DNA of 64,000 nt from an uncultured Solirubrobacteraceae bacterium (GTDB lineage: Bacteria; Actinomycetota; Thermoleophilia; Solirubrobacterales; Solirubrobacteraceae), in NCBI GenBank assembly GCA_964588985.1, contig CAZPQW010000011.1, positions 1-64,000 on the forward strand. The letters run 5' to 3'. This document shows positions 1 through 14,971 of this stretch, piece after piece; the first letter of the stretch is position 1; the number at the start of each line of letters is the position of its first letter. Both the position numbers and the translations under genes were made by a program. The notes below the pieces were generated by a model. That model was not told where the DNA came from, ran no database searches, and worked only from the letters and a program-made list of their open reading frames with translations.

Positions 1-255
1 GGGGGCGCCCCGGGGGCGCCCGGGGAGAACGAGCCCGTGGCTCCGGGGGCGCCCGGGGAGCCGCCCGGGGGCACCCCGGGCCGCCCGACGTTCAGGGCGC
101 GCGCGCCCCGGGCCGCGCCCCGGAAGCCCCGGGCCGTCCCGCCGCGCGCCGCACAGACCCGGGAGGAGCCTCACGCCGAGACGCCCGCCACGGCCGCGGA
201 CACGCGCCCCTCCGGCGGTCTGTTCGGTGGCCTGCTGGACGGGCTGATGTCATGA
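1..255 (+). CDS. Phage protein, 5'-partial, Gly/Pro-rich (GAPG repeats) with amphipathic C-terminus
   Basis: Frame is open from position 1 and ends GGLFGGLLDGLMS; stop overlaps the next ATG (ATGA at 252-255). Confidence 0.65.
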   Translation, partial: GGAPGAPGENEPVAPGAPGEPPGGTPGRPTFRARAPRAAPRKPRAVPPRAAQTREEPHAETPATAADTRPSGGLFGGLLDGLMS

Positions 256-770: not shown

Positions 771-773
771 CCC

Positions 774-1163
774 ATGACCGAGAGCACCGAGCACGAGCAG
801 GACGACGTCGTCGACGGCGAGATCATTGAGGACACCGGGACCGCCGCGGAGAAGATCCTCGGGACCCTCCGGATGCTCTCCACCCCGGACGAGGACGCCG
901 GCGAGCTGCAGCTGATGCTCGCGACCGTCTGCATGGGCCTCGAGCGGAGCATCAGCGAGGCGCTGCACGAGCAGCAGCAGACGGGGGAGCTCGATGAGTT
1001 CGTGCTCGCGCTGACGAGGTTCCTCGCGACGCACCGCAGCTCCGGCGCCCGGCAGCTTCTCGTGGTCGAGATGCCGCGCCACCAGAACATCCCGGCCGGG
1101 ACCCGGCTGCATCTCCTCGACGAGGCCGCGGAGGCCGCGGCGAGCGCGACCAGCCCGCTATGA
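774..1163 (+). CDS. Phage hypothetical acidic protein
   Basis: 129 aa with SD GAGGAG upstream; stop overlaps the ATPase start. Confidence 0.75.
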   Translation: MTESTEHEQDDVVDGEIIEDTGTAAEKILGTLRMLSTPDEDAGELQLMLATVCMGLERSISEALHEQQQTGELDEFVLALTRFLATHRSSGARQLLVVEMPRHQNIPAGTRLHLLDEAAEAAASATSPL

Positions 1164-1891
1164 GAGCGATCCGGGTTCACCCCGAGGCCGACCGGGTGCT
1201 GCTTATCAGCCGCACCGGGAAAGGCAAGACGACGTTCGCGCGGTTCATCGCCGAGCAGCTGCAGCCCTGCCGGCTGATTGTGGTCGACCCGAAGGACGAA
1301 CTCGACTTCGGAGTGCAGAAGCTTCGCACCCCCGCGGAGCTCGCGCTCGGGATGCACCAGCCGATCGTGCACTACGTCCCCGCGAGCTTCGACCGCGACT
1401 CGCTCGAGGAGGCCAGCCAGATCATCTGGCTTACCCCGGGCCCCTACATCCTGTGGCTGGACGAGCTCAGCGAGCTCTCGAACCCGAACTGGTGCCCCAG
1501 CGGGTTCCGGCTCGCCGAGACACAAGGCCGACAGGGCCGCAAGCTCGTGATCGCATGCACACAGCGCCTCGCGGAATCCCACCCCGTGTTCCGCAGCCAG
1601 GCAAGCCACGTGATCGCGCTCGTCCCGTGCCCAGTCGAGAAAGACCTCAAGATGCTCGCGGGTGACGCGATACCCCGCGAGCCCGAGGAGATCCGCGCCG
1701 AGCTCGAGAGCCTGCACGCCCAGCATGGCGACTTCAGCCACCTCTGGTATGTCGAGGACGGCGACGAACTCCGCCGCTGTCAGCCGATCCCGCTGCCGAA
1801 CGGCCCCCGGGTGCCCCCCGGGGAGGGCACGGGCCCGCAGCGGCCCCCCGCTACCGCGCTCGAGGAGCCGGCGGCAGAGTCCGCGCCATGA
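1160..1891 (+). CDS. FtsK/HerA-superfamily genome packaging ATPase (PRD1 P9/A32-like)
   Basis: Walker A SRTGKGKT, IVVDPK strand, Walker B LWLDE, arginine finger QGRQ, sensor CTQR and RSQASH motif; 243 aa; next to the capsid gene. Confidence 0.88.
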   Translation: MRAIRVHPEADRVLLISRTGKGKTTFARFIAEQLQPCRLIVVDPKDELDFGVQKLRTPAELALGMHQPIVHYVPASFDRDSLEEASQIIWLTPGPYILWLDELSELSNPNWCPSGFRLAETQGRQGRKLVIACTQRLAESHPVFRSQASHVIALVPCPVEKDLKMLAGDAIPREPEEIRAELESLHAQHGDFSHLWYVEDGDELRRCQPIPLPNGPRVPPGEGTGPQRPPATALEEPAAESAP

Positions 1892-2022
1892 AAAAGATCG
1901 GATTCAGCTTCGGGTCGTTCTTCAAGATCGGACTGATCGCCATGGTGTTCATCCTCCTGGCGAAGTGGGTCCTCGCGAAGGTCAACGTCCCCGGGCTCTC
2001 AGCGGTAGCACAGGGCGTCTAA
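1888..2022 (+). CDS. Small membrane protein (44 aa), packaging-vertex candidate (P20/P22-like position)
   Basis: MKKIGFSFGSFFKIGLIAMVFILLAKWVLAKVNVPGLSAVAQGV. ATGA overlap with the ATPase; below the ORF track cutoff. Confidence 0.8.
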   Translation: MKKIGFSFGSFFKIGLIAMVFILLAKWVLAKVNVPGLSAVAQGV

Positions 2023-2026
2023 GCAG

Positions 2027-3115
2027 ATGCCTACCCCGTCGAACGCTCCGGCGACCAGCACCGGTGAAAACGAGGTTCAGGACCCAGTCCTGTTCGCCGA
2101 GCTCACCGAGCGCCAGGCGATGCCGCAGACGACCACCACGATCAAGGGCATGGCGAAGAAACAGCGCCTGCAGGTCGAAAAAGTCGGGGTCATCAGCCGC
2201 GTCAGGCTGCAGATCAAATGGAAGTTCAAAACGAAGGCCGCAAGCAAACCGGTCCTCAACCCGGGCTTCCCCTACAAGATGCTCGCCGAGCTCGCGATGC
2301 AAGCCAACGGCGTCACCGGGATCATCGACTGCAGCGCCATGACGCTCGCGCAGCGCCGCGACCGCGTGTACCGCAACCCCACAACCGCGATCGAAAACGG
2401 GCCGGCCGCCGGGACCACCCTCGAAGCCGCGAAATCCTACGAAGGCACGTTCGTGGTCGAAGTCCCGATCGCGCATGACATGGAAAGCCTGATCGGGAGC
2501 CTCCTCGCGCAGAACGAGGAGACCAACCTCAGCTTCCTACTGACGTGGGCCAGCGAAGCCGAAATGATGCACTCCGGCGAAATCGAAGGCTTCGAAGGCG
2601 AAATCGTGTGGGGCAGCACCGTCTTCAGCATCGGCTCAACGGTCGTCGGTAAGAAGGAAATGACCGTGCTCCCAGACCTGTCCGCGTTTCACGGGATCAC
2701 CGAACAGGAACCGAACCTCAACGGCACCGGCAACCAGAAGATCGAACTGACCCGCACCGAGGGGCAGCTGCTGTGCCTCACGTTCGCGATCCTCAACAAA
2801 GCCGGCGGCCAGGCGACCCTCAAGCCCCAGGAACTCACCAAGATCCAGCTCGAATACGGCGGCAACAAGGACCCCCTCGTGTGGCTCCCCGCGAGCGAAC
2901 TGATCGAGGAGAACGCGGACGACTACAACGGCGCGCTGAGCCCCGGAGGCGTCCAGTTCGCCGCGATCGACAACGAGCGCGACAACAGCCACCGCGACAT
3001 GATCATCCCCGCCGACCTCGTCGAATTCCGTGCCGTGCTCGGGGTCCCGACCAGCTTCACCCCCGAAGAAGCACGGACCCTCGTCGCGTCCGAGACGCTC
3101 TACCCGGCGGTCTAG
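2027..3115 (+). CDS. Double jelly-roll major capsid protein (Bam35/betatectivirus-like)
   Basis: 362 aa, beta-rich. Motifs FPYKML..NG, VEVPI..LIGSLLAQNEETNL, LPDLS, RDMI..LVEF and terminal VASETL match my recollection of the Bam35 capsid in colinear order. Confidence 0.85.
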   Translation: MPTPSNAPATSTGENEVQDPVLFAELTERQAMPQTTTTIKGMAKKQRLQVEKVGVISRVRLQIKWKFKTKAASKPVLNPGFPYKMLAELAMQANGVTGIIDCSAMTLAQRRDRVYRNPTTAIENGPAAGTTLEAAKSYEGTFVVEVPIAHDMESLIGSLLAQNEETNLSFLLTWASEAEMMHSGEIEGFEGEIVWGSTVFSIGSTVVGKKEMTVLPDLSAFHGITEQEPNLNGTGNQKIELTRTEGQLLCLTFAILNKAGGQATLKPQELTKIQLEYGGNKDPLVWLPASELIEENADDYNGALSPGGVQFAAIDNERDNSHRDMIIPADLVEFRAVLGVPTSFTPEEARTLVASETLYPAV

Positions 3116-3120
3116 CAGCG

Positions 3121-3486
3121 ATGCCCGTCCCCGGGTTCGACGACCCCGCCCTGAGCAGCCGCCCCCCAGCCGGTGATCTCTTCTTCGCGCCCGCCGCCGG
3201 GCTCGCCGTCTCCAAACACGAGGTGATCCGCGGCGGCGGACGCAGCAGCCCCGCCGGCGCACAAAGCCTCGACGCCAGCGCGCCGAGCTTGATGTTCGGG
3301 TCCGGGAAGTACACCAGCGACGGCGAAGTGATCGTGCACAGCAGCAAGAGCGTGCGCGGGCACTACAGCGAAATCTTGAACTTCCACGGCAGCCCCGCCC
3401 CCTGGATCCTAATCGGGATCCTCCTCGTCGCCGGGATGCTGCACCTCTCCGCCGAAGGCAAGTTCGGGTTCGGGGGCCGGGTGTGA
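3121..3486 (+). CDS. Phage membrane protein (C-terminal TM)
   Basis: ATG 5 nt after the MCP stop; TM segment PWILIGILLVAGMLHL. Confidence 0.72.
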   Translation: MPVPGFDDPALSSRPPAGDLFFAPAAGLAVSKHEVIRGGGRSSPAGAQSLDASAPSLMFGSGKYTSDGEVIVHSSKSVRGHYSEILNFHGSPAPWILIGILLVAGMLHLSAEGKFGFGGRV

Positions 3487-3609
3487 GTGGAATCACTCGC
3501 ATCGATACTCCTCACCCTGCTCGTGATCGCTCTCGTACTCGCATACGCGCAGGGCGGCACCGCGGGCGTGGGGAAGTGGCTGCACGCGAAATTCGTCGGG
3601 GAAACCTGA
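3487..3609 (+). CDS. Small membrane protein (40 aa)
   Basis: GTG immediately after the previous stop; MESLASILLTLLVIALVLAYAQGGTAGVGKWLHAKFVGET. Confidence 0.72.
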   Translation: MESLASILLTLLVIALVLAYAQGGTAGVGKWLHAKFVGET

Positions 3610-3705
3610 ATGCCGGCGGTCGGGATCGTGCTGTTCTTGATCGGCCTGTGGATCTTCATCCGCACAGTCCGCGGGAACCTCGCGAAGACGCTCACGGGTG
3701 GCTGA
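3610..3705 (+). CDS. Small membrane protein (31 aa)
   Basis: ATG immediately after the previous stop; MPAVGIVLFLIGLWIFIRTVRGNLAKTLTGG. Confidence 0.72.
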   Translation: MPAVGIVLFLIGLWIFIRTVRGNLAKTLTGG

Positions 3706-3706
3706 C

Positions 3707-4576
3707 ATGACCCACGAGCAGCGGGCCCGCCGCTACCTCCAGGCCAGCATGAACGCCGGCTACACCAACCTCCCCGCCGAGCGCCGTGAAGCCTACGAGG
3801 ACCAGATGCGCGCGCACGAGCGCGCCTACCCCCGCGTGCGCGAACACGCCCTCGCCGGCGCCGACAACGACTTCGACGAGCGCCTGAACGCGGGGGAGCG
3901 CGAACACCAGCGCCACCTCCGCCGCCAAGACGGCCTCCAGGAAGCCGACGTGCACCGCATCCGCGGCGAGCTCCGCGGCAACACCCCCAAGGCGTCCCGC
4001 CGAGCTCGCCGGCCATCCGGGACGACTGCGGGGCCGCGCGCCGCGCAGCGCGCCGTCGCGGCCGGCGGCAGCGCGATCACCGCGGCCGCCAGCGGCGGCG
4101 GGAACATCGTCATGTACTTCATCGGCGGAGCGCTCCTGCTCAGCCTCTTCTACCTCCTCGTCAAGGGCAAGGGCGCCGGCGCGCTCACCGGCATCGTCAA
4201 CACCATCGTCGGGGCCGCCGGCGCATTCGTGAAGCCCGTCGACCCGGTCGCCGCCGCGCAACGTGCACTCGGCGCGAGCCCCACCACCGGCGCGAGCCCC
4301 ACCACCCCCAGCGGGGCCGGCCAAGCAAACATCACCGCGGGCGGGAACCCCGGCCCAGCCGCGGGAGGAGCCACCGCCCCGCCCCCTGGCCAAGTCGGGA
4401 GCCAGCTCGCGGACCGCAACGCCAAAGCACGCGACGTCGCACGGGGATTGCATTTCAAAGGGGTGCTCGAACGCGAAGTCAAGGAGGGCGTCTACACCCT
4501 CCCGATCGCCGATCGCGTTCTCAAGAGCACCTTCCCCAATTACGCCCGCGAGACCCGCGAACTCGCCGGAAAGTGA
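3707..4576 (+). CDS. Phage membrane protein (central TM; DNA-delivery/membrane protein candidate)
   Basis: Charged helical N-terminus, TM IVMYFIGGALLLSLFYLLV and a Pro/Thr/Gly linker. Start 3698 (GTG) is also possible. Confidence 0.78.
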   Translation: MTHEQRARRYLQASMNAGYTNLPAERREAYEDQMRAHERAYPRVREHALAGADNDFDERLNAGEREHQRHLRRQDGLQEADVHRIRGELRGNTPKASRRARRPSGTTAGPRAAQRAVAAGGSAITAAASGGGNIVMYFIGGALLLSLFYLLVKGKGAGALTGIVNTIVGAAGAFVKPVDPVAAAQRALGASPTTGASPTTPSGAGQANITAGGNPGPAAGGATAPPPGQVGSQLADRNAKARDVARGLHFKGVLEREVKEGVYTLPIADRVLKSTFPNYARETRELAGK

Positions 4577-4580
4577 GCCC

Positions 4581-4718
4581 ATGCGCAACTTCCTCAAGAC
4601 AGCGTTCTTCCTGATCCTCGCCTACCTCGCGCTGATCCATTTCACCGGGTTCAGCAAGGACGTCAGCACCGTCCTCGGAGGCACCGGCGAACTGGTCAAG
4701 GACTTCCAGGGCCGGTAG
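4581..4718 (+). CDS. Small membrane protein (45 aa)
   Basis: MRNFLKTAFFLILAYLALIHFTGFSKDVSTVLGGTGELVKDFQGR, 4 nt after the previous stop. Confidence 0.78.
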   Translation: MRNFLKTAFFLILAYLALIHFTGFSKDVSTVLGGTGELVKDFQGR

Positions 4719-4722
4719 ACCC

Positions 4723-5004
4723 ATGGCACGGTTCGACACGCGGTTCCGTCAGCCGCCCGTGAAGATCGCGCGCGCCCAAGCCCGCAGCCAGCAGGCTGGG
4801 CTCATCACGGGCGTCACGCGGACCATCCGCGGCGCCGGCGATTTCGGGATGCGCGAAGCTCGCATGGGCAGCGTCCCGCTGAAGCTCCGGATCGGCAAAG
4901 GGATGGGGCCCGCCGCGGCCGGCGCGCTCCCGGTCGGCCGCACGCGGCGCAAGCGCGGCTACCCGCCGATCCCCGTCTCCGCCGCGAGCGCCCTGAGGGA
5001 ATAG
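4723..5004 (+). CDS. Basic phage protein (93 aa)
   Basis: Fills the gap exactly between neighbours; Arg/Gly-rich. Confidence 0.62.
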   Translation: MARFDTRFRQPPVKIARAQARSQQAGLITGVTRTIRGAGDFGMREARMGSVPLKLRIGKGMGPAAAGALPVGRTRRKRGYPPIPVSAASALRE

Positions 5005-5580
5005 ATGCCCCTGCCAGGAGCCCCGCCGAAGAAGAACAGCCGCCGGTGGATGATCTACGCCGGCGCCGTCGTCGTGCTCCTGGTCGTGCTGCTCGTCGTG
5101 AAAGGCAAAGGCGCCACGGAACCCAAAGCAGCCTCACCCGTCGTCGAAGCCCCACCGAACCTCGGGGGCGGCACCGGCGAAACCGGGGGTCTCGGCGGTG
5201 GCGGGACTGTCGCGCTTGAAGGGCCGCAGGGCAAAGAAGGCCCATCAGGCCCCCAGGGGCAGCAGGGCCCGGTAGGCGAAAACACGGTCACCAGCGAAAC
5301 GGCCGCAGCCCAGGCTACCGCCGCCGCCGCGACCGCCGTGAGATCCGCCGCGGCCGCCACGAGCTCGAGCCGGGCGGCGAGCAAGGCAGCAACCGCCGCG
5401 AAGAAAGCCGCGGCCCACAAAGGCGCCCCGAAGAAGACAGCGCCGAAGCCCCACAAGAGCACCAAACACAAGGCGCCCGCGAAGAAACCGCCCGCTCACC
5501 ACGCACCCGCGCATCACGCGCCGGCGCATAAACCTGCAGCGAAGCACAAGGCCGCACCCAAACCGCACAAGAAGAAGTAG
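5005..5580 (+). CDS. Membrane-anchored protein with collagen-like segment and Lys/Ala/Pro/His-rich tail
   Basis: TM WMIYAGAVVVLLVVLLVV; 7 G-X-Y triplets at 5221-5283; histone-H1-like C-terminus. Confidence 0.82.
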   Translation: MPLPGAPPKKNSRRWMIYAGAVVVLLVVLLVVKGKGATEPKAASPVVEAPPNLGGGTGETGGLGGGGTVALEGPQGKEGPSGPQGQQGPVGENTVTSETAAAQATAAAATAVRSAAAATSSSRAASKAATAAKKAAAHKGAPKKTAPKPHKSTKHKAPAKKPPAHHAPAHHAPAHKPAAKHKAAPKPHKKK

Positions 5581-5622
5581 CGCGTGCGCTTCCTACCCCG
5601 ACACCGAAGGAGAACCAGCCAC

Positions 5623-5943
5623 ATGTCACTGCAGCCCCTCCCAGCCAGCCCCGAGGCCTCGCCCGCCGGCGAGCCCACTGTCACCCCGGAGATCCAGGCG
5701 CTCATCGACCGCGAGGTCAGCGCGTTCGCGCAGGCCCACGGCATCCAGGCCCCCGTCGCCGAGCAGGCCGCGAGCGCCCTCGAGGCGATCGCCGCGGACG
5801 CCGAGCACTCCACGTTCGCGGAGAAGCTCGAGCACATCGCTCAGAACGGCTACCAGGCCGCCCTGCACGAGTGGGAGGACGCCCCCCCATCGCTGAAGGC
5901 GCTCGTGACCGTCGTCGGCGAGCTCGTCACGAAAGTCGGCTAG
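5623..5943 (+). CDS. Phage acidic helical protein
   Basis: SD GAAGGAG upstream of ATG 5623; 106 aa. Confidence 0.72.
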   Translation: MSLQPLPASPEASPAGEPTVTPEIQALIDREVSAFAQAHGIQAPVAEQAASALEAIAADAEHSTFAEKLEHIAQNGYQAALHEWEDAPPSLKALVTVVGELVTKVG

Positions 5944-5956
5944 AGGAACCACGGGG

Positions 5957-6100
5957 ATGAAGTGGCCCAGCACCCAGACGCGAGAAGCACTGAAGCTCAA
6001 CCTCGAGCTGCTCCTGCTGCTGATGCTGGTGCCACTCGTCCTCTACACCCTCGTCAAGGACCGCAAGGCCGGCCTACAACTCGCCCTCAACGCACGATGA
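5957..6100 (+). CDS. Small membrane protein (47 aa)
   Basis: MKWPSTQTREALKLNLELLLLLMLVPLVLYTLVKDRKAGLQLALNAR; SD GAGGA; ATGA overlap with the next ORF. Confidence 0.72.
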   Translation: MKWPSTQTREALKLNLELLLLLMLVPLVLYTLVKDRKAGLQLALNAR

Positions 6101-6378
6101 GCACCCAAGCCCCCCCAGCCCCCGAGACCACCGAGAGCCAGCGCCACCGCGAGGGCATCGGGATCTTGATCCTCGAGCCCGCGCTCGAGGAGGAGATCCG
6201 CGATCTCGGCGGACCCGGGGGCCCGCCCCGCGAGCCGGCCGCCCGCGGCCGCGGGCGAGGAGGCGACCGCCCGGACCGCATCAACCGATACCTCTTGATC
6301 TTCGCGGGGATCTGCCTCCTCGCGGCCTACTTCGCGATCATCGCCGTCCTGAACGACCCGCGCCGCGGAGACCGCTGA
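6097..6378 (+). CDS. Phage membrane protein (C-terminal TM, 93 aa)
   Basis: TM YLLIFAGICLLAAYFAIIAVL; coupled on both sides. Confidence 0.72.
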   Translation: MSTQAPPAPETTESQRHREGIGILILEPALEEEIRDLGGPGGPPREPAARGRGRGGDRPDRINRYLLIFAGICLLAAYFAIIAVLNDPRRGDR

Positions 6379-7037
6379 TGGCTGTCACGGCGGGAGCCAA
6401 AGCAGTCCCGGGCGCGGGCGGCGAACTGAACCGCGAACAGTTCGCGGAGAAGGTGCTGCAGTCGGTCGGGATCCCGGTCAACAAGACGTCGGTCGGGAAG
6501 TTCGTCGCATGGGAGAAGCAGGAGGGCGGGCACTGGAACAACACCGCTCGATACAACCCCCTCAACACCACGCTCGCGCTCCCCGGCGCCGCGAACACCG
6601 GCACCCAGGGCAACATCAAGGTCTACAACAGCTGGCAGCAAGGGATCGAAGCGACCGTGAAGACCCTGAAGGCGCCCTCCTACGCAGGGATCCTCGCAAA
6701 CCTAAAGTCTGGGACCGTCGCCGACTTCAAGATCGCCGTCAACACCAGCCCATGGGGCACGAAGTTCAGCAACCTCGGTGAAGCGATCGAACCGACCGAA
6801 GGGCTCTTCGGGCCCGCTGAGAAGCAAGGCGGTGTCACACAGACAGCCGAACAGGGCCTCGAAGAAGCCGGCCACACGATCTCCGGGCTCTTCAACACGA
6901 ACTGGGGCGAACTGGGGATGAACATCGTGCTGTTGCTCGCGGGGGCGGCCCTGGTGGTGTACGGGATCATGGTCGCTGTCCGCCCGCGCGAGAGCGCGTT
7001 CTCGCTCCCGCGGATGCCTATGCCGGTGCCGGTGTGA
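6378..7037 (+). CDS. Membrane-anchored lysozyme-like muralytic enzyme (entry enzyme; PRD1 P7/Bam35 gp26 analogue)
   Basis: AW..EGG, YNPLNT, Y.SW..GI.AT..TL and SPWGT motifs typical of lysozyme-fold peptidoglycan hydrolases; C-terminal TM. Confidence 0.72.
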   Translation: MAVTAGAKAVPGAGGELNREQFAEKVLQSVGIPVNKTSVGKFVAWEKQEGGHWNNTARYNPLNTTLALPGAANTGTQGNIKVYNSWQQGIEATVKTLKAPSYAGILANLKSGTVADFKIAVNTSPWGTKFSNLGEAIEPTEGLFGPAEKQGGVTQTAEQGLEEAGHTISGLFNTNWGELGMNIVLLLAGAALVVYGIMVAVRPRESAFSLPRMPMPVPV

Positions 7038-7041
7038 AGGG

Positions 7042-7275
7042 GTGGAGGGCCATGCGGAGGATCTACGGCTCTTGGGCTATCGGCTTGACAGGCTCGAGGA
7101 GCGGGTGCGCGGCGACTACCTCACGGAGGAGCACGCTGTGAACCGTTTTGTGACACGCGAGGAACTCGAGCGCAGCGCGAAGGTGCGCCGTGAATGGTGG
7201 CCGATCATGCTGATGGCGCTCGCCGGGATCCCGGGAACCGTCAACCTCATCTTGACCTTGAAAGGCGGCCGCTGA
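7042..7275 (+). CDS. Small coiled-coil plus C-terminal TM protein (holin-like candidate)
   Basis: 77 aa; RLDRLEER helix followed by a hydrophobic C-terminus. Confidence 0.62.
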   Translation: MEGHAEDLRLLGYRLDRLEERVRGDYLTEEHAVNRFVTREELERSAKVRREWWPIMLMALAGIPGTVNLILTLKGGR

Positions 7276-7586
7276 TGGCTTGGGATTCACTCGAACTGGG
7301 GCAGCCCGGGAACCCCGCGTGCCCCGACGTGATGGAACCCAAGAGCGAACTGCTATGCGTCGCGTCGACCCGGCTCGTGCTCCAGACGAGCGTCGCCGCG
7401 GTCTTCATCGAGCTCGGCGTGATGCCTCACGGGAAGGGCGTCGGGCTCGCGAGCGTGCAGTGGCTTGGCGAGAAACCGTTCTTGCCGATCGTCGCGTCCC
7501 TGGCCCGCGAGTTTGACGCGGTCCGGGTCCGCAACTACACGAAAGGCGTCCCCGCGCAGGTCTTGATCAGCGTCGAGGGCTTGTGA
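7275..7586 (+). CDS. Penton (single jelly-roll) candidate
   Basis: 103 aa, beta-strand-rich, directly before the spike gene as in tectiviruses; TGATG coupling. Function inferred from position. Confidence 0.55.
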   Translation: MAWDSLELGQPGNPACPDVMEPKSELLCVASTRLVLQTSVAAVFIELGVMPHGKGVGLASVQWLGEKPFLPIVASLAREFDAVRVRNYTKGVPAQVLISVEGL

Positions 7587-9958
7587 CCCACGAACTCGAG
7601 CAGCTGCAGCAGCTCGTCGAGGAATTCTCGACACAGCTACAGACCGCGGTCGCGCGGATCGAGGAGCTCGAGTCGCGCCCCGAGGCCGACCAGATCGCCG
7701 GGAACACCGCGCGGCTGAACGCTGCCGGCGAAGTCGAAGAGATCACGACCGGCAACGAAGCGCTCGCCGGCGAGATGCCATGGGCGACCGGCGAAGACAC
7801 CGAGGTGTGGCTCAGCCCCCTCGCGATCAACCCGAAGGCCCCGCCCTACAACTGCAAGTTCGACCTCTACGCGACCGTGAAAGGCTCGATCGCGGAAGAA
7901 AGCAACGAACTCACCGTCGGCGGGTACATCTTCACCACCGCAGACATCGGCAAGCAGCACAACGTGCAGGGCGCCGGCGTCGCCGCCGGCGAGCTATCCG
8001 GCGAAATCATTGGGGTCACGAAAGGCAAAGCGGTGCTGTCCGTGGCGGCGTCGACGACGGTCGCGGGAGCGAACACGCTCTTCGGGACCGACGACACGAT
8101 CGGCCTGAACAAAGCATTCGCCGACGTCAGCGGGAGCGGTCATGGCGCGATCCCGCTCGCCCGCGAAATCATCATGCCGCAGGGCGCCGCGCTCGTCACG
8201 AAACTCCTGGCGCCCCGCCACGGCGCGGTGCGCGGGTGCACGCCGGCGTGGCAGCAGACCGGACGCGTGTTCAGCTTCTACGAGGGGTGGACACAGAACG
8301 GCGGGACCACCATCTACCAGAAGTGGGGTCAGACCGAAGACGCCGTCCGCTGCAAACAGATCAGCGGCCTAGAATGGGCCGGGATCATGGAAGGGTTCTG
8401 CGTGCTGCAGCACCCCACGAACACGGGCGGGAAGGGCATCAGCTTCCGCAACGCCGCCGGCGAACCACTGCTCCTGGTCGACGGCGCGAAATTCAGGAAC
8501 ATCCGCGTCGAAGGGTTCGCGAGCGCCGGCATCGAGATCCCCACCGGCGCGGTCCCCGGCCTCTTCGAGAACGTCAACGTCGAACAAAACGGGCTCGTCG
8601 ACGGCAGCCCCGGCATCCTCTACACCTGCCACGGCACCGGCGACGACATGACGTTCACGTTCCCCTCCGGGGCGAAGAACGCGACCGCGCTGATCGAAAT
8701 CAAAGGCGCCGGCGCGACCAAAGGCAAGATCCGGATCACCGACCTCCACAGCGAGTTCGGGCCCAACGAAATCCGCCGGCCGGGCGGGGCGCCATGCCAA
8801 GCCAACGCGGTGATCCTGAACAACATCCCACGCGCCTGCGTCGACATCGCCGGGATCACCCACCGCGCCGACTCGAACAGCAAAGGCTTCGGCGCGGAAT
8901 CCGAACTCGGCGCCGCGATCAAGAGCACCGGCGGGACACCCAACCTCACCTGGAAAGCCTGCAACGTCACCGTGCAGGAACCACAAACCCAAGGCTACGC
9001 CTACGAAAACGTCACCAAGAAAGAAAAGATCGCCGCGGCCGGCGGGACACTCCTCGTCACCGGCAACGGCGAATACAACCTCGGGGAAGGCCACAGCCGC
9101 AGCGTCCGCGCGATCGGCGACGAAGCGACGAACATCACGCTCACCGACGACCTCCTCGTCTACACCACCACGCTCACCGGTGAACACGCCGCGAACCTCC
9201 CGCAGGTCGCCGGCGCCGAAGGCCCCGCCCCCCGCCTCGGCCAAGAATTCGAGCTGAAAGACGCCACCGGCCTGATGTCCAACACGCTCCTCGTGAACGT
9301 GGCAGCGCACGCAGGCGACACGCTCGTAGGAGACACACAGCTCGTCTCCCCATACAGCACCCTCAAAGTGGTCTGGGACGGCACCGTGTGGGTCGGGACC
9401 CTCACCGTCAACCCCGTCATGGACTGGAAGAATCCCACATCCGGTGAGGAGGTCATGCCGCTCGCGGAGGCCCAAGCAACCGCGCTCGCGCTGACCACCG
9501 GGCAGATGCTCTTCACGATCTTCGAGGCGAAACGCACCGAGCCCATAACGAAGATTCGGATCCCGACCGGCACCACCGGACACCTCGCGGAAGGCGCCGG
9601 CGCCGCGGTCGAAGCCGGCATCTTCACCGTCGCCAGCAACGGCGCGCTCGCGCTGATCACGAAGACCGCGAGCGAAGTGAAAGCCATGGAAAAAGCCCAA
9701 GAAGAGACCCAACAAGCACTCCTCGCTGAATGGGCAAAGAAACGCGGCGTGAAGTACGCCTACGGGCTCCTCGTCGTCAGCAGCGCGATGCCAACGACAG
9801 TCGGAGCGAACTTCGCATCCGCCGCGATCGCGGGCGGCGGGAACGGCCGGCCTCGGCGCTGCGGCGTCGTCACCGGCCTCGCGAGCATCCCCGCAGAAGT
9901 CGCCCCAGGATCGATCGCGAACCTCGTCCGCGCCCCCTACGCCATGTTCGTGCCGTGA
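7583..9958 (+). CDS. Spike/receptor-binding protein with beta-helix (pectate-lyase-like) region
   Basis: 791 aa; N-terminal coiled coil; GTDDTIGLNKAF..IIMPQG tailspike-type motif; beta-helix-like repeats. Confidence 0.8.
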   Translation: MTHELEQLQQLVEEFSTQLQTAVARIEELESRPEADQIAGNTARLNAAGEVEEITTGNEALAGEMPWATGEDTEVWLSPLAINPKAPPYNCKFDLYATVKGSIAEESNELTVGGYIFTTADIGKQHNVQGAGVAAGELSGEIIGVTKGKAVLSVAASTTVAGANTLFGTDDTIGLNKAFADVSGSGHGAIPLAREIIMPQGAALVTKLLAPRHGAVRGCTPAWQQTGRVFSFYEGWTQNGGTTIYQKWGQTEDAVRCKQISGLEWAGIMEGFCVLQHPTNTGGKGISFRNAAGEPLLLVDGAKFRNIRVEGFASAGIEIPTGAVPGLFENVNVEQNGLVDGSPGILYTCHGTGDDMTFTFPSGAKNATALIEIKGAGATKGKIRITDLHSEFGPNEIRRPGGAPCQANAVILNNIPRACVDIAGITHRADSNSKGFGAESELGAAIKSTGGTPNLTWKACNVTVQEPQTQGYAYENVTKKEKIAAAGGTLLVTGNGEYNLGEGHSRSVRAIGDEATNITLTDDLLVYTTTLTGEHAANLPQVAGAEGPAPRLGQEFELKDATGLMSNTLLVNVAAHAGDTLVGDTQLVSPYSTLKVVWDGTVWVGTLTVNPVMDWKNPTSGEEVMPLAEAQATALALTTGQMLFTIFEAKRTEPITKIRIPTGTTGHLAEGAGAAVEAGIFTVASNGALALITKTASEVKAMEKAQEETQQALLAEWAKKRGVKYAYGLLVVSSAMPTTVGANFASAAIAGGGNGRPRRCGVVTGLASIPAEVAPGSIANLVRAPYAMFVP

Positions 9959-10635
9959 CCCAAGAGCAACGCATCGCCCAGCTCGAGCAGAAGGTCCAAG
10001 CCCTCGAAGGCCACCAAGACCAAATCACCCCCGGCGCCTACAGCATCAACTCCGAAGGCAAGATCGAGGAGAAACTCACCGGGCACCTCGAAGCCCAAGG
10101 CATCGACCTGCCACTCGGATCCGGTGAACCAAGCAGGATCACATGGGGCGCCAGCGGCCGCCAGGGCGTGATCTTCACAGGCCCCTCAGGAGCCTCGGGG
10201 GCCGTCCTACAGATGAGGGCCTACTCGGAAACCGAGCAGACCCTGCTCGATCTCGCCGCCGACGGAGAAGGCAACGGGCTGGCGAACCTCGTCGTCGATG
10301 CGCACGCAGTTACGCTTCTCGACGCGGACGGCAACAGCGCATTCGCGCGCCTCAGCACCCTCGGCAATATCCGTCTCTCATTCGGGATCGCGACCCTCAC
10401 CTATCCCGGCGGCAGCGAACAGAGCGATACCGCGACTATCGCGAGCTTCCCCGAAGCCAAAAGCGGCGGCGCGCTCTACTTCACCCAGGCCGTCGAGGCC
10501 GAAGGCAACAGCCGCTTCGGCGTGGTCGTCAACCCCGCCGCCGACAGCTTTGACCTCTACCTCCAGAGCACCGTGGGGGAACCCCCAGCCGGCACCAAAG
10601 AGCACTGCTACTGGCTCGCGATCCTCATCGACTGA
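9955..10635 (+). CDS. Second spike/vertex protein (226 aa)
   Basis: GTGA overlap; starts MTQEQRIAQLEQKVQALEG; N-terminus resembles that of the 791-aa spike. Confidence 0.75.
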   Translation: MTQEQRIAQLEQKVQALEGHQDQITPGAYSINSEGKIEEKLTGHLEAQGIDLPLGSGEPSRITWGASGRQGVIFTGPSGASGAVLQMRAYSETEQTLLDLAADGEGNGLANLVVDAHAVTLLDADGNSAFARLSTLGNIRLSFGIATLTYPGGSEQSDTATIASFPEAKSGGALYFTQAVEAEGNSRFGVVVNPAADSFDLYLQSTVGEPPAGTKEHCYWLAILID

Positions 10636-10650
10636 AAGGAGAGAACCGCC

Positions 10651-10719
10651 ATGCGCCACCGCAAACCGAAGGGCCACAAAAAGGGCTGCAAATGCGTCGT
10701 CTGCCGACGCAAACGCTGA
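10651..10719 (+). CDS. 22-aa highly basic peptide with H-x3-C-x-C-x2-C motif
   Basis: MRHRKPKGHKKGCKCVVCRRKR; strong SD AAAGGAG upstream; fills the gap between spike and lysin. Confidence 0.62.
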   Translation: MRHRKPKGHKKGCKCVVCRRKR

Positions 10720-10754
10720 TAGGACTGAGTCTCAAACGAGGAAGGGAGCGGCCC

Positions 10755-11402
10755 ATGTGGGTCATGTACGACAGCACCGACGTGGGCCAAATCCCCACCA
10801 ACGCACAAGCCGTCGCCGGCTACGTCGGCGGACACTGGCCGACCTACCCCGAGCTCGTCAAGCGCTTCCCGCACGCCCAACACCTCTCGATCGCCGTCAG
10901 CGCCCAAGAGGACGCCGACTGCCTCGACATCGAGAAAGGCGACGCCACACCAGCCGACGCCCCAGGCTGGTACCACCGCCAACGCGCACGCGGCCTCACG
11001 CGGCCCGCGTTCTACGGCAGCCTCTCGCTCATCCCCGCGATCATGAGCACCCTCGGGTTCGCCGGGATCCCACGCAGCGCCTACCGCATCCTGAGCGCCC
11101 ACTACACCGGACACCCCCACATCTGCGGTCCCGCGTGCGGCCTCTCACCGCCCGCGGACGGCACCCAATGGACTGGCGGGAACAGGTACGACGAGTCGCT
11201 CCTCAGCAGCGCGTTCTTCAACGCCCCGCCCCCGAGCCCGCTCACCCCCGAAGAGCAGCTCGTGATCGCGCACATCCGCCGCCTCCGCCAAGAGATCTAC
11301 AACGCCGCCGAACACGGCCAGCTACCCAACGGACACCCCACCCAACGCGGCTGGCGCCTCCACCACCGCGCCGAGCGCTACCAACTCCTCAAACACCCCT
11401 GA
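10755..11402 (+). CDS. Putative endolysin (GH25-like/TIM-barrel glycoside hydrolase)
   Basis: MYDS..IP..A.AVAGYVGG, LDIEKGDA, AHYTG.PH and TQW..YDES motifs; SD AGGGAG before ATG 10755. Confidence 0.72.
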   Translation: MWVMYDSTDVGQIPTNAQAVAGYVGGHWPTYPELVKRFPHAQHLSIAVSAQEDADCLDIEKGDATPADAPGWYHRQRARGLTRPAFYGSLSLIPAIMSTLGFAGIPRSAYRILSAHYTGHPHICGPACGLSPPADGTQWTGGNRYDESLLSSAFFNAPPPSPLTPEEQLVIAHIRRLRQEIYNAAEHGQLPNGHPTQRGWRLHHRAERYQLLKHP

Positions 11403-11462
11403 GCTGGGGCTCACGCTGAGGGAGCGTAAAGGATTCTGTCCGGTCCAACCTGCAGGATCGCT

Positions 11463-11481
11463 CTAACGTCACCAACGTTAG
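11463..11481. promoter_or_regulatory. Perfect inverted repeat (operator candidate) CTAACGT-N5-ACGTTAG
   Basis: Contains a TAACGT -10-like hexamer and overlaps the SD (AGGAGG) of the 55-aa ORF. Confidence 0.5.
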
Positions 11482-11493
11482 GAGGGTCTTCCT

Positions 11494-11661
11494 ATGCAGG
11501 TCGTTTTGGAGCGCGAGAAGGAAACGAAGAACACCGTGCGGTTCAGGGAGCCGGACGGCGACGGAGAGCAGCAGCTCGGCATCATCTACGTCCCCAAGAG
11601 CACGGTGAGCGCTCTCGGGGATCCTGCTCTGCTGCAGATCACGCTCGCGGCAGCGGCCTAG
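11494..11661 (+). CDS. Small protein (55 aa), possible AbrB/swapped-hairpin DNA-binding protein
   Basis: MQVVLEREKETKNTVRFREP..LGIIYVPKSTVSALGDPALLQITL; strong SD AGGAGG. Confidence 0.7.
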   Translation: MQVVLEREKETKNTVRFREPDGDGEQQLGIIYVPKSTVSALGDPALLQITLAAAA

Positions 11662-11662
11662 A

Positions 11663-11715
11663 ACGACACCGGCCGGACAGGCGCTATTGCGTTCCGTCCG
11701 GCCGGGTCGTAACAT
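11663..11715 (+). promoter_or_regulatory. Long hairpin overlapping a sigma70-type promoter TTGCGT-17-TAACAT
   Basis: Arms at 11663-11678 and 11696-11710; -35 at 11687-11692, -10 at 11710-11715, ATG 8 nt downstream. Confidence 0.55.
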
Positions 11716-11723
11716 TCGCGCCT

Positions 11724-12188
11724 ATGGATGGGGTCTCATCCACAAGCGCACGATCCAATCTAGCCAACCGGCCCGATAGATCGCACGGACGCTTGCAAGC
11801 AGAACTCCGCCGCGACTTCGAAGCGGCGTTTGGAAGGCAGCCCCGGACCCGCCAGCTCGAGCACCTCGAGAACGCCGCCACGTGGATGATCCGGACGCGC
11901 CAGCACTCTGGGCCCGCGATCCGGCGGAGCTGGCCACAGATCGCGCGCGGCTGCGGGTTCCCGGATCTCGGGACCGTGCGCGCCGTCAGCGATCGCTGGA
12001 CTCGCCAGCTTTACCGGACGTTTGGCTATCTTCGTGAGATGGGCTGGGTCGACGGCTGGGAGGCCGTGATAGAGAGCAAGGGCAACTCGAGCGGGATCAT
12101 CTTGCGCGTGGGCCCCAAGGCTCCTGCGGGCCCGCTACCCTCCGGGGCTCGCCGGAGTAGCTCAGCTGGTAGAGCGCCTGTCTTGTAA
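11724..12188 (+). CDS. Winged-HTH protein (replication initiator or regulator candidate) overlapping the tRNA 5' half
   Basis: SWPQIARGCG..QLYRTFGYLREMGWV plus a beta wing; preceded by a good promoter; TAA stop lies in the tRNA anticodon loop. Confidence 0.6.
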   Translation: MDGVSSTSARSNLANRPDRSHGRLQAELRRDFEAAFGRQPRTRQLEHLENAATWMIRTRQHSGPAIRRSWPQIARGCGFPDLGTVRAVSDRWTRQLYRTFGYLREMGWVDGWEAVIESKGNSSGIILRVGPKAPAGPLPSGARRSSSAGRAPVL

Positions 12189-12223
12189 ACAGGGGGTCAG
12201 GGGTTCGAGTCCCCTCTCCGGCT
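12151..12223 (+). tRNA. tRNA-Thr(UGU)
   Basis: Acceptor GCCGGAG/CTCCGGC, D-arm GCTC/GAGC, anticodon stem CCTGT/ACAGG with loop CTTGTAA (TGT at 12184-12186), T-arm AGGGG-TTCGAGT-CCCCT; CCA not encoded. Confidence 0.97.
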
Positions 12224-12243
12224 TCGCAAGCTCCCCGGCTCGC

Positions 12244-12861
12244 CTAAGGGGCCAGACGCTCGATCAACCAGCCGTCGCTCTGACGCCGGTAGCGCAGTCG
12301 GTCGTGGAGGCGATCTTTGCGCTGCTGCCAGAACTCGAAGGTCTCCGCGGCGAGGCGGAAGCCGCCCCAATTGCTCGGCAGCGGAAGCTCGCTGTCCTCG
12401 TACTGCCCGTCCAGCTCGGCGACACGGCGCTCCAGCACCTGGCGACTGTCGATCGTGTGGCTCTGCGGCGAGGCGAGCGCGCTGAGCTGGCTGCCGCGCG
12501 GGCGTTCGCGGACATAGGCGGCCGTCTCCTCGGTGCTGGTGCGCGCGACGGGACCCTCGATCCTCACCTGCCGGCCGAGGACGTCCCAGTGAAAGAGCAG
12601 CGCCGCCCGCGGATTGGCGGCGAGCTCGCGACCCTTGCGACTGTCGTAGTTCGAGTAGAAGACGAACCCGCTCTCGTCGAAGCCCTTGAGGAGGACCATG
12701 CGAACCGACGGAGCGCCGTCCGCAGACGCGGTGGCGAGCGCGACGGCTTCGGCCAGGCGAACGTCGTCGGCCGCCTCCGCCTCCCGATACCACGCGGCGA
12801 ACTGGCGCACGGGATCGGGGTGGACATCCTCCTCGCGCAGCGGCTGTCCGTGATCGGTCAC
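12244..12861 (-). CDS. pdxH: Pyridoxamine 5'-phosphate oxidase
   Basis: PSVRMVLLKG, FYSNYDSRKG, RQVRIEG and EFWQQRKDRLHDRLRY motifs. Start 12861 (GTG, leaderless) or 12879. Confidence 0.93.
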   Translation of the reverse strand: MTDHGQPLREEDVHPDPVRQFAAWYREAEAADDVRLAEAVALATASADGAPSVRMVLLKGFDESGFVFYSNYDSRKGRELAANPRAALLFHWDVLGRQVRIEGPVARTSTEETAAYVRERPRGSQLSALASPQSHTIDSRQVLERRVAELDGQYEDSELPLPSNWGGFRLAAETFEFWQQRKDRLHDRLRYRRQSDGWLIERLAP

Positions 12862-12970
12862 GCTGGCATTGTGTCCCATCAGCGCTCGGGCACCGTGATC
12901 GTGCCCCAAGGATTGATATCTGCGCCGATATCTGTTTGCTGTCAGCTGAATGTTGGCTAGGCTGCGCCGC

Positions 12971-14971
12971 ATGTCCTTCCGTGCGCGCATCTCGATCCTC
13001 ACGTGTGTCCTCATGTACTCGCTCGCCGCGATGCCGGCCGCTGCCAACGCAGCCGCCTACGAAGTGGCGGTCACCACCACCGAAGACCGCGGCCTGACGG
13101 ACAACCCCAACTACTGCAGCGGGGAAGGCGCCGGCGGGGAAGAATGCCCGTTGCGCGCGGCCCTCGAAACGGCCAGCGAGATCACGTTCTTCGGCGGCGA
13201 AGAAATCGTCGTGGCGGTCCCCGCCGGCCACTACCTGCTGAGCAAAGGACCACTGCCGCTGGGTGACGCGCACGCCAAATCGTGTGTGTCGGGCGCCACG
13301 AAACCGGCATGCCCGGTCACGCTGAAGGGCGCCGGCGCAGGACTGACGATCATCGACGGGCAGGGTGCGAGCCGGCTGATCACCACAACCGAAGAAGCCG
13401 GGCCGGTGACGATCGCCGGGGTCGAGCTCACCCACGGCGCGGCGAAAAACGCAGGGGCGATCTATGCGTTCCTGACCGCCCTGACGGTGCGCGAAGCGCT
13501 GATCACCGAAAACGAAGCGACCGAACTGGGCGGAGCGATCGAGGCCGACTACAGCCCTGGACTGCTCGTGGAGAACAGCTCGATCACCCACAACGTCGCC
13601 TCCTACGGCGGTGGCATCCTGGCCCATGTCTCACTGGTCGAAATGATCGGCTCTACGCTTGCGAGCAATCACGCCTCCAAAGCCGGAGGTGGACTCACGC
13701 TGGAAGAGAACGCCGGCCTGGGGGCGATCGTGACCGACTCGACGATCGCAAACAACACGGCGCTCACTTCAGGTGGAGGCATCGCGGCACTCGCCACCTC
13801 ATTCGTGCTGCTGCACTACTCGACGGTCACCGCCAACGCCGCGGCGGAAGGTGGCGCGGTATTTGGCGCCGATCCCCTGGCGATCGAAGGCTCGATCCTC
13901 GCGGGCGACTCGCCCGACGAGTGCGCTGCGGCGAAAAACGCAAGCGCGGCCGGCGTGAACATCCTCTTCGGATCGTCCTCCTGCTCCTTCTCCGGGCCGG
14001 GGCCCCTCGCGGTCGACCCTCGACTCGGACCGCTCTCTGCGAGTGGCGGTCTCGGAGCCACGGTCCCGCTGCTTCATGGCAGTCCGGCCGTGGACGCAGG
14101 CGGCACCTCGTGCCCCGCCACGAATACCGGTGCGGGCCAGATCGACGGGCGCGGCGTTCGGCGCCCACAGGGAGCCGGATGCGACCTCGGAGCGTTCGAG
14201 TCCGCAGCCGATGCGGGGATCGCCCTCGCGGCGTCCCCGAACCCGGCGCTCGTGGGCGGCTCGCTTTCGCTGACGGCCAGCGCGTCCAACGTCGGACTCG
14301 AACCTCTGACGGGCGTGAGCGTGACGGTCCCCGTCCCCGCGGGTGCGAGCTTCGTCTCGGCGCCGGTGGGCTGCACAGCGGCGTTCGCCACAACTGCCAC
14401 TGTCACCTGCCAGCTCGGCTCGCTCGCCCCCGGACAGACGAGGTCCGTCTCGATCGCCATCCGCCCAGAACAGCTGGGCGCGCTGGTTGAGAGCGCGTCG
14501 GTGACCACCGACCAAGCCGACTACAACCCGTCGAACGACTCGACGACCGTCGCGAGCGTCGTCGCCACCGGGGTGACCAAAGCCCTGCCGCCCCTCAACT
14601 CGGCATCGGCGGCGCTCCTCAGCAAGATCCTCGCAGTCGACGCGCACGGCAACGTCACGATTCGCGTCAGGTGCACGGGCGGCCTCGGCGCACGCTGCCA
14701 GGACACCGTCGCGATCTACTCTGCCCGCGGGATCCTGCCCGCCGTCCTCGCCCGCCGCAGCTCCCGCGCCGTCCTGCTCGCTCGGCGTCATCTCGTCCTC
14801 GCGGTGGGCAAGACCGCCGTCCTGCATCTGCGCCTCGACCGGGCGGGCATGAAGCTACTGAGAGTGCATCGCGTCGCGTCCGCACGTCTCCTGATGGGCG
14901 CCGTCGCCACCGGCAGCGCAGGCAGCGTGCGCGGGTACGCGGTCGAGCTGGTGCGCGCACGACGACATTGA
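12971..14971 (+). CDS. Secreted protein with CSLREA-like/beta-helix (GGAI repeats), choice-of-anchor-Q-like and DUF11 domains
   Basis: Signal peptide; CPLRAAL; GGAI/GGGI repeats; GSPAVDAG..DGRG..RPQG.GCDLGAFE; DYNPSNDS. Confidence 0.8.
   Translation: MSFRARISILTCVLMYSLAAMPAAANAAAYEVAVTTTEDRGLTDNPNYCSGEGAGGEECPLRAALETASEITFFGGEEIVVAVPAGHYLLSKGPLPLGDAHAKSCVSGATKPACPVTLKGAGAGLTIIDGQGASRLITTTEEAGPVTIAGVELTHGAAKNAGAIYAFLTALTVREALITENEATELGGAIEADYSPGLLVENSSITHNVASYGGGILAHVSLVEMIGSTLASNHASKAGGGLTLEENAGLGAIVTDSTIANNTALTSGGGIAALATSFVLLHYSTVTANAAAEGGAVFGADPLAIEGSILAGDSPDECAAAKNASAAGVNILFGSSSCSFSGPGPLAVDPRLGPLSASGGLGATVPLLHGSPAVDAGGTSCPATNTGAGQIDGRGVRRPQGAGCDLGAFESAADAGIALAASPNPALVGGSLSLTASASNVGLEPLTGVSVTVPVPAGASFVSAPVGCTAAFATTATVTCQLGSLAPGQTRSVSIAIRPEQLGALVESASVTTDQADYNPSNDSTTVASVVATGVTKALPPLNSASAALLSKILAVDAHGNVTIRVRCTGGLGARCQDTVAIYSARGILPAVLARRSSRAVLLARRHLVLAVGKTAVLHLRLDRAGMKLLRVHRVASARLLMGAVATGSAGSVRGYAVELVRARRH

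Follow-up and report, generated by a model that had tools for sequence, protein, structure and literature searches.

The window, that is, the first 64,000 nucleotides (nt) of contig C11 of an uncultured Solirubrobacteraceae genome, hereafter labelled G000 and assembled in 48 contigs, contains an intact tRNA-Thr(UGU) gene that is abutted on its 5′ side by what is very probably the right-hand end of a provirus. An open reading frame (ORF) of 154 amino acids (aa) runs from the provirus into the tRNA gene. It starts with a winged-helix N-domain, followed by a short spacer and then by 12 residues, RRSSSAGRAPVL, that are encoded by 12150–12185, corresponding to one viral base and tRNA nt 1–35. The anticodon loop CTTGTAA (7 nt) occupies 12182–12188, and its final three bases are the stop codon of the ORF; the stop falls at this position because U36-A37-A38 of the host tRNA itself reads TAA. 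A preliminary description of the locus had noted both this read-through, with a stop closing the anticodon loop, and a host pdxH gene directly on the 3′ side; the first is borne out by the sequence, the ORF list and ARAGORN, and pdxH indeed lies 20 nt beyond the end of the tRNA (Table 1). The ORF appears to be a genuine gene and no artefact of GC-rich DNA, because its third-position GC content is 0.8–1.0 across ~11800–12100 and because it has five homologues of 149–161 aa with 49–64% identity. Four of the five also carry RRSSSAGRAPVL as their C-terminal end. The tRNA is identical to that of the relative G014 over 72 nt without a mismatch, and ARAGORN calls no second tRNA with the same anticodon in the assembly. 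Elsewhere in the genome (G000:C27 31243–31339), ARAGORN reports a 97-nt ‘tRNA-???’ with a four-base anticodon (ggag).

Table 1. Coordinates of the provirus, its genes and its junction with the host tRNA gene (window positions unless contig C38 is named)
Feature	Coordinates	Strand	Basis or remark
Right-hand 12.15 kb of provirus	1..12150	+	All genes on +; contig starts in Pro/Gly-rich repeat gene
Putative genome-packaging ATPase, 243-aa P-loop	1160..1891	+	phrog_2666 ‘terminase large subunit’, 4.1e-14, partial profile
Major capsid protein, double jelly-roll (PRD1 P3-like), 362 aa	2027..3115	+	ESM Atlas structure search; phrog_5863, 7e-8
Putative spike/receptor-binding protein, 791 aa	7583..9958	+	Weak phrog_32881 ‘pectin lyase activity’, 3.2e-5; no Pfam family
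Inverted repeat, 10-bp arms, just 5′ of split gene	11669..11705	+	Read from sequence
Truncated (prophage) form of split gene, 154 aa	11724..12188	+	ORF list, homologues, reconstruction
TACCCT, −10-like hexamer in viral DNA	12136..12141	+	9 nt before tRNA start; sequence and relatives
attR core, 20 bp, tRNA nt 1–20, GCCGGAGTAGCTCAGCTGGT	12151..12170	+	Same as attL C38:4208-4189 and as L028 attP
Intact tRNA-Thr(UGU)	12151..12223	+	Sole tRNA in window; ARAGORN call tRNA-Thr(tgt)
TAA stop of truncated ORF	12186..12188	+	tRNA nt 36–38 (third anticodon base, A37, A38)
Host pdxH	12244..13047	−	Pfam PNPOx_N 4e-27, PNP_phzG_C 6e-19; first 3′-side host gene
Left-hand 4.18 kb of provirus: integrase, C-terminal half of split gene, attL	C38:4177-1		Outside window
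Tyrosine integrase, 267 aa, whole	C38:2651-3454		Convergent to split gene; PF00589 Phage_integrase 7.6e-35, domain at residues 77–248

The other end of the element lies on a second contig, C38. A BLAST search of 12101–12260 against the genome identified a copy of tRNA-Thr nt 1–31 at C38:4208–4178 (minus strand), 93.5% identical, with 20 exact bases followed by 9 matches in 11. No tRNA is called on C38 by ARAGORN, and BLAST finds no 3′ fragment of tRNA-Thr(UGU) in the genome. Starting from the host side and reading in the orientation of the tRNA, C38 carries an acyltransferase gene (PF01553, 6.8e-30) that points away, 56 nt, the tRNA fragment, a 224-aa ORF on the same strand and a convergent integrase gene. 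The element extends past the start of C11 and, taken as C38:4177–1 plus C11:1–12150, measures ~16.3 kb. It had been proposed beforehand that the geometry is reversed and that the far end carries a second copy of the 5′ part of the tRNA. The duplicate is found beside the integrase gene, and the geometry is as proposed: the element sits 5′ of the intact tRNA, and the C38 copy joins the host acyltransferase on its other side.

Comparison with the tRNA-Thr(TGT) loci of 14 relatives in the genus places these flanks in the same host locus. The same acyltransferase is found near tRNA-Thr(TGT), or near a fragment of it, in 12 of the 14 loci, and in 10 of these 12 it is located on the 5′ side of the tRNA, pointing away. 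L026 holds an inverted 3′ fragment only, and in L019 the acyltransferase match reaches just 53% identity. The segment C38:4.2–11.4 kb is syntenic gene for gene with the left flank in L014, L017, L018 and L021. On the right, homologues of the genes at window 17101–20242 are located ~4–7 kb 3′ of the tRNA in the relative G015. The pdxH gene does not adjoin tRNA-Thr in any of the 14 loci, and in three relatives it lies over 1 Mb away or on a different contig; because it is not next to the tRNA in the relatives examined, the 3′ flank reads as a variable region. The segment 12244–17100, with pdxH and a 673-aa ORF, separates the tRNA of the window from the genes that follow it at ~4–7 kb in G015. 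A public contig of 21,051 nt covers 11200–12700 with zero differences and contains one more 31-nt match, with its end at 12181, that is reported to be a joint within that contig. No overlap of 15 nt or more was found between the ends of C38, C11 and all other contigs. The ends of C38 and C11 both lie inside a Pro/Gly-rich coding repeat that continues in frame, and this repeat is probably the reason why the assembler stopped at both. The repeat is collagen-like (..KPPGEPPG / GAPGAPGENEPVAPGAPGEPPGG..), belongs to a provirus gene and spans window 1–250 and C38 1–100.

The 154-aa ORF reads as part of a conserved protein of ~396 aa with two domains: it provides the N-terminal half, with the winged helix, and the 224-aa ORF adjoining the left attachment site (attL) on C38, at the far end of the provirus, provides the C-terminal half. 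The homologue P0006, encoded on a contig of 17,292 bp, is 396 aa long; its N-terminal 156 residues are 56% identical to the window ORF and its last ~180 residues match the 224-aa ORF, a likeness apparent by eye and put at 71% identity in alignment A4. On the metagenome contig L028 are a fused ORF of 407 aa and a convergent integrase gene whose product is 52% identical to that of the element; this contig has no tRNA. When the ends of the G000 element are joined in silico at their shared core to give the viral attachment site (attP), the reading frame spans 396 codons without an internal stop, and in the excised form it would run on from the window into C38:4187–3445. The C termini are Arg-rich in all three cases: RRRRYS in G000, RARRR in P0006 and RKERDG in L028. 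The preliminary description had placed attP inside a coding gene and had suggested that integration changes the C terminus of its product. In agreement with this, both the reconstructed attP, in which the ORF is extended, and the natural forms (396 and 407 aa) read through the tRNA-like core, and integration would shorten the protein from ~396 to 154 aa. Taken together, these data make it very likely that the provirus resides in the 5′ end of tRNA-Thr and that its attP lies in the linker of a ~396-aa gene that is split by integration. The inverted repeat that precedes the split gene has a loop, CTATTG(C/A)(G/T)TTCCGT, that is kept in L028 (~1130–1170, also directly upstream of the split gene), with different stems. 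A TAACAT hexamer 8 nt before the ATG of the 154-aa ORF suggests a leaderless transcript in the window.

A three-way alignment of attL, the junction in the window (attR) and the L028 attP limits exact identity to tRNA nt 1–20. From nt 21 onwards, attL reads GGAGCGTCTGT and then becomes unrelated, L028 reads CAAGCAAGG and attR follows the true tRNA; upstream of the core, all three differ from each other. The similarity between attL and the tRNA extends to nt 31, ending before the anticodon loop. By this alignment, tRNA nt 21–73 appear to be host-derived, whereas nt 1–13 (or up to nt 20) and everything upstream appear to be virus-derived. Because the identity between attL and attR ends after nt 20, the crossover probably lies in the D-loop, not in the anticodon loop. 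The D-loop is flanked by the D-stem arms GCTC and GAGC (AAGC in L028). Strand exchange would take place within it, at nt 14–20, between these inverted arms, and an overlap region of nt 14–20 would account for identity stopping exactly there. Two earlier proposals are not borne out by this alignment: a crossover in the anticodon loop, which is absent from the repeat, and a virus that supplies the whole 5′ half of the tRNA, of which it contributes 20 nt at most.

The arrangement recurs across a protein family. A HMMER search with P0006 gave 54 cluster representatives; together with P0001, P0003, P0006 and the two G000 pieces, 59 sequences were classed, 22 as full-length, 26 as N-domain only and 11 as C-domain only. 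A peptide resembling a translated tRNA D-arm follows directly after the N-domain in 45 of the 48 sequences that have this domain. The motif is of two types, SS[AV]G (26 sequences) and VAQ (19), corresponding to two reading frames only; the third frame, in which T8-A9-G10 would read as a stop, is unused. Beyond the motif, 25 of the 45 sequences read on for at least 188 residues, 12 stop 9–10 codons after it with six different tails, six stop 20–58 residues after it and two end after four residues, probably at contig ends. The early stop thus recurs in all 12 short forms, the window’s included, and is consistent with a UAA formed by U36-A37-A38 in many tRNAs. This triplet is typical of tRNAs that read ANN codons. 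Searches of 401 genomes each in the order and in the phylum found the family in a single genome, in both cases G000; these counts are floors from a stricter first look. Scans of viral contigs with the N-terminal ORF and with P0006 gave no match, nor did a genome-contig scan with alignment A1 or a tblastn search of P0006 against 50,697 phage and 72,556 plasmid records. A metagenome scan with P0006 likewise gave no match, and the scan with alignment A2 returned L028.

Integration also replaces the DNA in front of the tRNA. Everything upstream of 12151 is viral, and the upstream region of the host, left at attL, points into the viral arm. Among 11 upstream regions of relatives (9 intact genes and 2 truncated copies), CTAnnCTC is found 9–12 nt before the start of tRNA-Thr in 6 (5 intact genes and 1 truncated copy); in L016, an intact gene, the motif is located ~35 nt further upstream. 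A second element, GTTACAGTTG, occurs at approximately −35 in 5 of the 11 (4 intact and 1 truncated) and also in the G000 attL. In the window, viral CTACCCTC occupies the position of the CTAnnCTC motif. The tRNA would be transcribed from viral DNA, either from the −10-like TACCCT element or on the transcript of the winged-helix gene, and the displaced host promoter at attL would be stopped by a terminator-like hairpin and T-run in the viral arm (C38:4117–4100), ~60 nt past the tRNA fragment. A hairpin with a different stem sequence is located at the equivalent position in L028. The minus-strand RNA of C38 4208–4085 is predicted to fold into a four-way junction, with acceptor-strand bases paired to sequence past the hairpin; its fold has an energy of −68.1 kcal/mol (z −3.1, 0 of 200 shuffles as good), and the L028 equivalent is weaker (z −1.8). 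On other contigs from the same metagenomes (runs X1 and X5), a tRNA-Thr-like gene is preceded by CGCTACCCTC or CGCTACCATC at a spacing near that of the viral TACCCT. These contigs may represent related proviruses or native promoters of other species; their consensus agreement is 0.68–0.70.

The AlphaFold model of P0006 has a mean predicted local distance difference test score (pLDDT) of 79, with N- and C-domains mostly above 90 and a block mean above 90 for residues 21–135. The attP falls in a poorly modelled linker, with pLDDT below 50 at residues 146–210. The winged helix of the N-domain aligns with Z scores of 6–7.9 to kleisin, CRP, RepE and Pi-initiator domains. A Foldseek search of the PDB gave no match at E 0.001 or better, with weak MarR and CodY rows only, and a PDB sequence profile search returned a single MarR chain (E 0.0035). 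The DnaD domain 2i5u aligns with the whole model at Z 6.0 and with the C-domain alone at Z 4.7 (74 residues, root-mean-square deviation 2.9), and the Atlas leads at 0.88 are Phg_2220_C, L_lactis_RepB_C and DnaB_2, flagged as ‘often chance’. The split protein is possibly a replication initiator or a regulator, a role that these model comparisons offer as a lead only.

Several results weigh against the reading of a single gene split by integration into the tRNA 5′ end. C38 and C11 are unjoined in the assembly and are linked through synteny, through the split gene and through one public contig. Among the Logan contigs of four runs, neither an excised (attP) nor an empty (attB) form was recognised, and loose ends at 12150–12157 resemble tRNA genes of other organisms. 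The tRNA origin of the D-arm-like motif is read from protein only, except in G000 and L028. The mismatches at nt 21 and 27 could reflect decay after integration, in which case the crossover could lie anywhere in nt 1–31. A sigma-70 consensus scan of 11400–12400 returned no promoters, so that the −10 reading of TACCCT draws solely on the relatives, and L028 has no CTAnnCTC-like motif and no TAnnnT before its core. The split protein matches no Pfam, PHROG or NCBIfam family, with no Pfam match in 56 members, and its C-domain alone finds no clear match in structure comparison (best Z 5.7). Fusion is not universal either, given the six of 45 sequences that stop inside the linker, and the linker may be regulatory DNA that merely stays open: its third-position GC content drops to 0.35–0.7 over ~80–110 codons in both G000 and L028, and a single linker is open by chance in 17–21% of shuffles per element, before the 1-in-3 match of frame is counted.

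The last of these points lead to the alternative that survives best, in which the overlap is incidental and there are two separate genes, a winged-helix gene of ~140 aa and a gene for a C-domain protein always made from its own GTG, with the stretch between them serving as regulatory DNA (tRNA promoter, att core, terminator, and the promoter and ribosome-binding site of the next gene). Besides the low third-position GC, the sequences stopping in the linker and the chance openness, this arrangement would explain the terminator-like hairpin with its positional equivalent in L028, the Shine–Dalgarno-like AGGAAGG that the C-half carries 5 nt ahead of an in-frame GTG at C38:3999, and the C-only database protein P0007, which begins exactly at that GTG (MGARV). 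Nevertheless, we regard it as unlikely, as 25 of 45 sequences, which are cluster representatives at ≤50% identity and differ in linker length, read on for at least 188 residues, against a chance of ~6–7% per element (open linker × matching frame), and fused forms predominate over those that stop in the linker (25 versus 6). Furthermore, all six tRNA-Thr members keep the N-domain in frame with the tRNA despite indels in the spacer, and the D-arm is used in its two stop-free frames only. We thus favour, with good confidence, a single gene whose disordered linker doubles as attachment site and regulatory DNA.

Far less probable is a crossover in the anticodon loop that left an attL copy once matching tRNA nt 1–38 and since decayed. 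The continuation of attL similarity to nt 31 would fit such a history, as would the 3′ fragments from nt 31/32 or nt 37 left by other elements in the genus, but after nt 31 attL reads TAGGAGG against the loop sequence CTTGTAA, with none shared, the independent L028 attP matches the tRNA to nt 20 only, and, among the remaining tRNA-Thr relatives, free and integrated forms part immediately past ..SSAG, equivalent to nt 20. The least credible option is an ordinary geometry or an artefact, in which the tRNA is virus-borne, or else the true ends lie elsewhere and the C38 fragment is a scar of some older, unrelated event: the unjoined contigs and the absence of pdxH beside the tRNA in relatives would permit it, but the tRNA is identical over 72 nt to that of G014, the right flank of G015 matches window 17–20 kb, the halves of one conserved gene abut two tRNA copies as in the natural attP forms, and no tRNA-Thr(UGU) 3′ fragment was found in the genome by BLAST.

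With integration of one gene-splitting element as the preferred reading, its gene content points to a small provirus of the non-tailed type with a tyrosine integrase. All of its ORFs are co-oriented except the integrase gene, and 24 of them were scanned against Pfam, PHROG and NCBIfam. The 362-aa capsid protein has a template-modelling (TM) score of 0.80 to a cluster named by PF09018 Phage_Capsid_P3_N, high enough by the Atlas criterion for a name to be given, and of 0.62 to the PM2-type P2 coat, its identity resting on one comparison of predicted models, with no solved structure. The putative ATPase gene lies beside the capsid gene, and its product matches AAA and DUF87 (HerA) Pfam families weakly (E 0.02–0.09). 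In the integrase, the catalytic motifs HGLRH and Y are visible; its assignment as a XerC/D equivalog was rejected, the NCBIfam Xer-like matches (1e-30) falling far under the curated cut-offs. At 267 aa, it seems too short to hold a lambda-type arm-binding domain. No DNA polymerase or rolling-circle Rep was found among the 24 ORFs scanned. No homologues of the element are present in the tRNA loci of the 14 relatives, save for a weak integrase match.

The classical 3′-type of tRNA-integrating element is ruled out here, as the element is 5′ of the tRNA and the repeat corresponds to nt 1–31. Instead, the element lies upstream of an intact tRNA and a copy of the tRNA 5′ part stands beside host upstream DNA, as expected of the 5′ type. 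Zhao and Williams are said to have reported a bacterial precedent for integration into the 5′ part of a tRNA gene in 2002. In a section on such cases, recombination with the tRNA 5′ part is called ‘considerably less frequent’ than with the 3′ part, and archaeal cases are cited (Krupovic et al. 2019, PMC6563490). As portrayed there, 5′-type elements resemble ours in lying upstream of an intact tRNA, in having a direct repeat that equals its 5′ part and in replacing the upstream region of the gene. Beyond what that section covers, the present element has its attP inside a conserved two-domain viral gene, belongs to a family with at least six different tRNA-like tails and has a core that ends at the D-loop. 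Neither the family nor the arrangement was found described in the literature consulted; supplementary tables (for example, Table S2 of PMC6563490) may hold further 5′-type cases.

Among known systems with attP inside a gene, the closest in logic is the integration-dependent immunity of the BPs type, in which, according to the relevant part of a review, the core comprises a tRNA 3′ end, rep and int share a transcript and the protein loses ~30 residues bearing an ssrA-like tag (Hatfull 2022, PMC9262239). As far as that outline goes, the two systems are alike in that attP lies in a gene that encodes a DNA-binding fold and adjoins the gene of a tyrosine integrase, that attB overlaps a tRNA gene, and that integration removes the 3′ part of the gene and supplies a new stop from host junction sequence. 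Unlike the BPs type as outlined, our element has a core formed by a tRNA 5′ end, an int gene that converges from the opposite strand and a capsid of the double jelly-roll type; integration detaches a folded domain of ~240 aa, and the viral form lacks an -LAA-like end. Our case thus appears to share the BPs logic while lacking three BPs features, namely the ssrA-like tag, the rep–int operon and the 3′ core. In the ‘suicidal’ integrases of the archaeal SSV type, as summarised by Badel et al. 2020 (PMC7253208), attP lies within the integrase ORF, which is split by integration; there, too, an ORF of the element is cut in two, whereas here the integrase stays intact and another gene is split. Double jelly-roll capsid proviruses of bacteria, as described in sections of Yutin et al. 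2018 (PMC5894146), have the same small genome, capsid gene, adjoining small P-loop ATPase gene and tyrosine recombinase for integration, with no mention in those sections of 5′ tRNA targeting or of an attP-bearing winged-helix gene. Finally, in tRNA-dependent lysogeny, as its account reads in part, integration does not restore the tRNA, for which the phage carries a substitute (Guerrero-Bustamante & Hatfull 2024, PMC10865867). As far as that account goes, both that system and ours combine a tyrosine integrase and a short core with an attB that lies within a tRNA gene; here the tRNA is rebuilt.

Other events are recorded at the same host locus. In G007 (L022, C10 8666–10724), the native tRNA-Thr by the acyltransferase is cut to nt 1–35, and a different tRNA-Thr(TGT), with acceptor GCCGACG, is found 1.86 kb away beyond a 471-aa ATPase ORF. 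Similarly, in G017 (L024 252–290; L025 8675–8940), the native tRNA-Thr by the acyltransferase is cut to nt 1–38, and a different tRNA-Thr(TGT), again with acceptor GCCGACG, is on another contig, with a 3′ fragment of nt 37–73 ~150 nt downstream. By analogy with tRNA-dependent lysogeny, these two loci may reflect integration without rebuilding of the tRNA, combined with a replacement tRNA. Three tandem tRNA-Thr 3′ fragments (nt 31/32–73) lie in G006 (L023, C5; 4758, 8152 and 13213), and one in G013 (L015 7243–7284); the same tRNA-Thr gene is also a hot spot for classical 3′-type integration in the anticodon loop. The contig of G021 (L026, C42 1–990) begins at tRNA nt 31, with the fragment pointing toward the acyltransferase, an arrangement that could have arisen by inversion at the att site or could reflect a break in the assembly.

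If the gene split acts as a switch, the full-length protein would work while the virus is free, perhaps by initiating replication or as a regulator, and in the lysogen the winged-helix fragment alone would act differently or not at all. After recombination, the fragment left behind could act as a repressor by binding at the DNA sites of the full-length protein. If fragment and tRNA were co-transcribed, processing by RNase P would remove the stop in the tRNA, tying the level of the fragment to tRNA maturation. Extended to the whole family, these steps would describe an integration-operated gene switch in small capsid-bearing viruses, in which the linker mimics the first 20–30 nt of lineage-specific host tRNAs and recombination in the D-loop both disables the full-length protein and ties the tRNA to viral DNA; we offer this as a tentative model, conceivable but on balance doubtful.

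To our knowledge, nearly all mapped elements that target tRNA genes restore the gene’s 3′ end, and programs that delimit prophages assume so. Both junctions, two natural unintegrated forms and the protein family indicate that this lineage consistently uses the 5′ end. The anticodon loop and the T-loop are known crossover sites in tRNA genes, and the D-loop, as the apparent crossover site here, would mirror them. With two folded domains separated by integration, the split gene would constitute a third kind of attP-in-gene arrangement, beside the SSV integrases and the BPs-type repressors. Gene callers will go on treating tRNA-encoded tails, such as RRSSSAGRAPVL and similar ones, as protein sequence, and software for finding prophages will set the ends of such elements wrongly. 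For the host, its single tRNA-Thr(UGU) gene is placed behind viral DNA. Recognition of a D-arm by a short integrase, virus-driven expression of a host tRNA and a gene split that may set lysogeny or replication in non-tailed viruses have thereby become testable questions.

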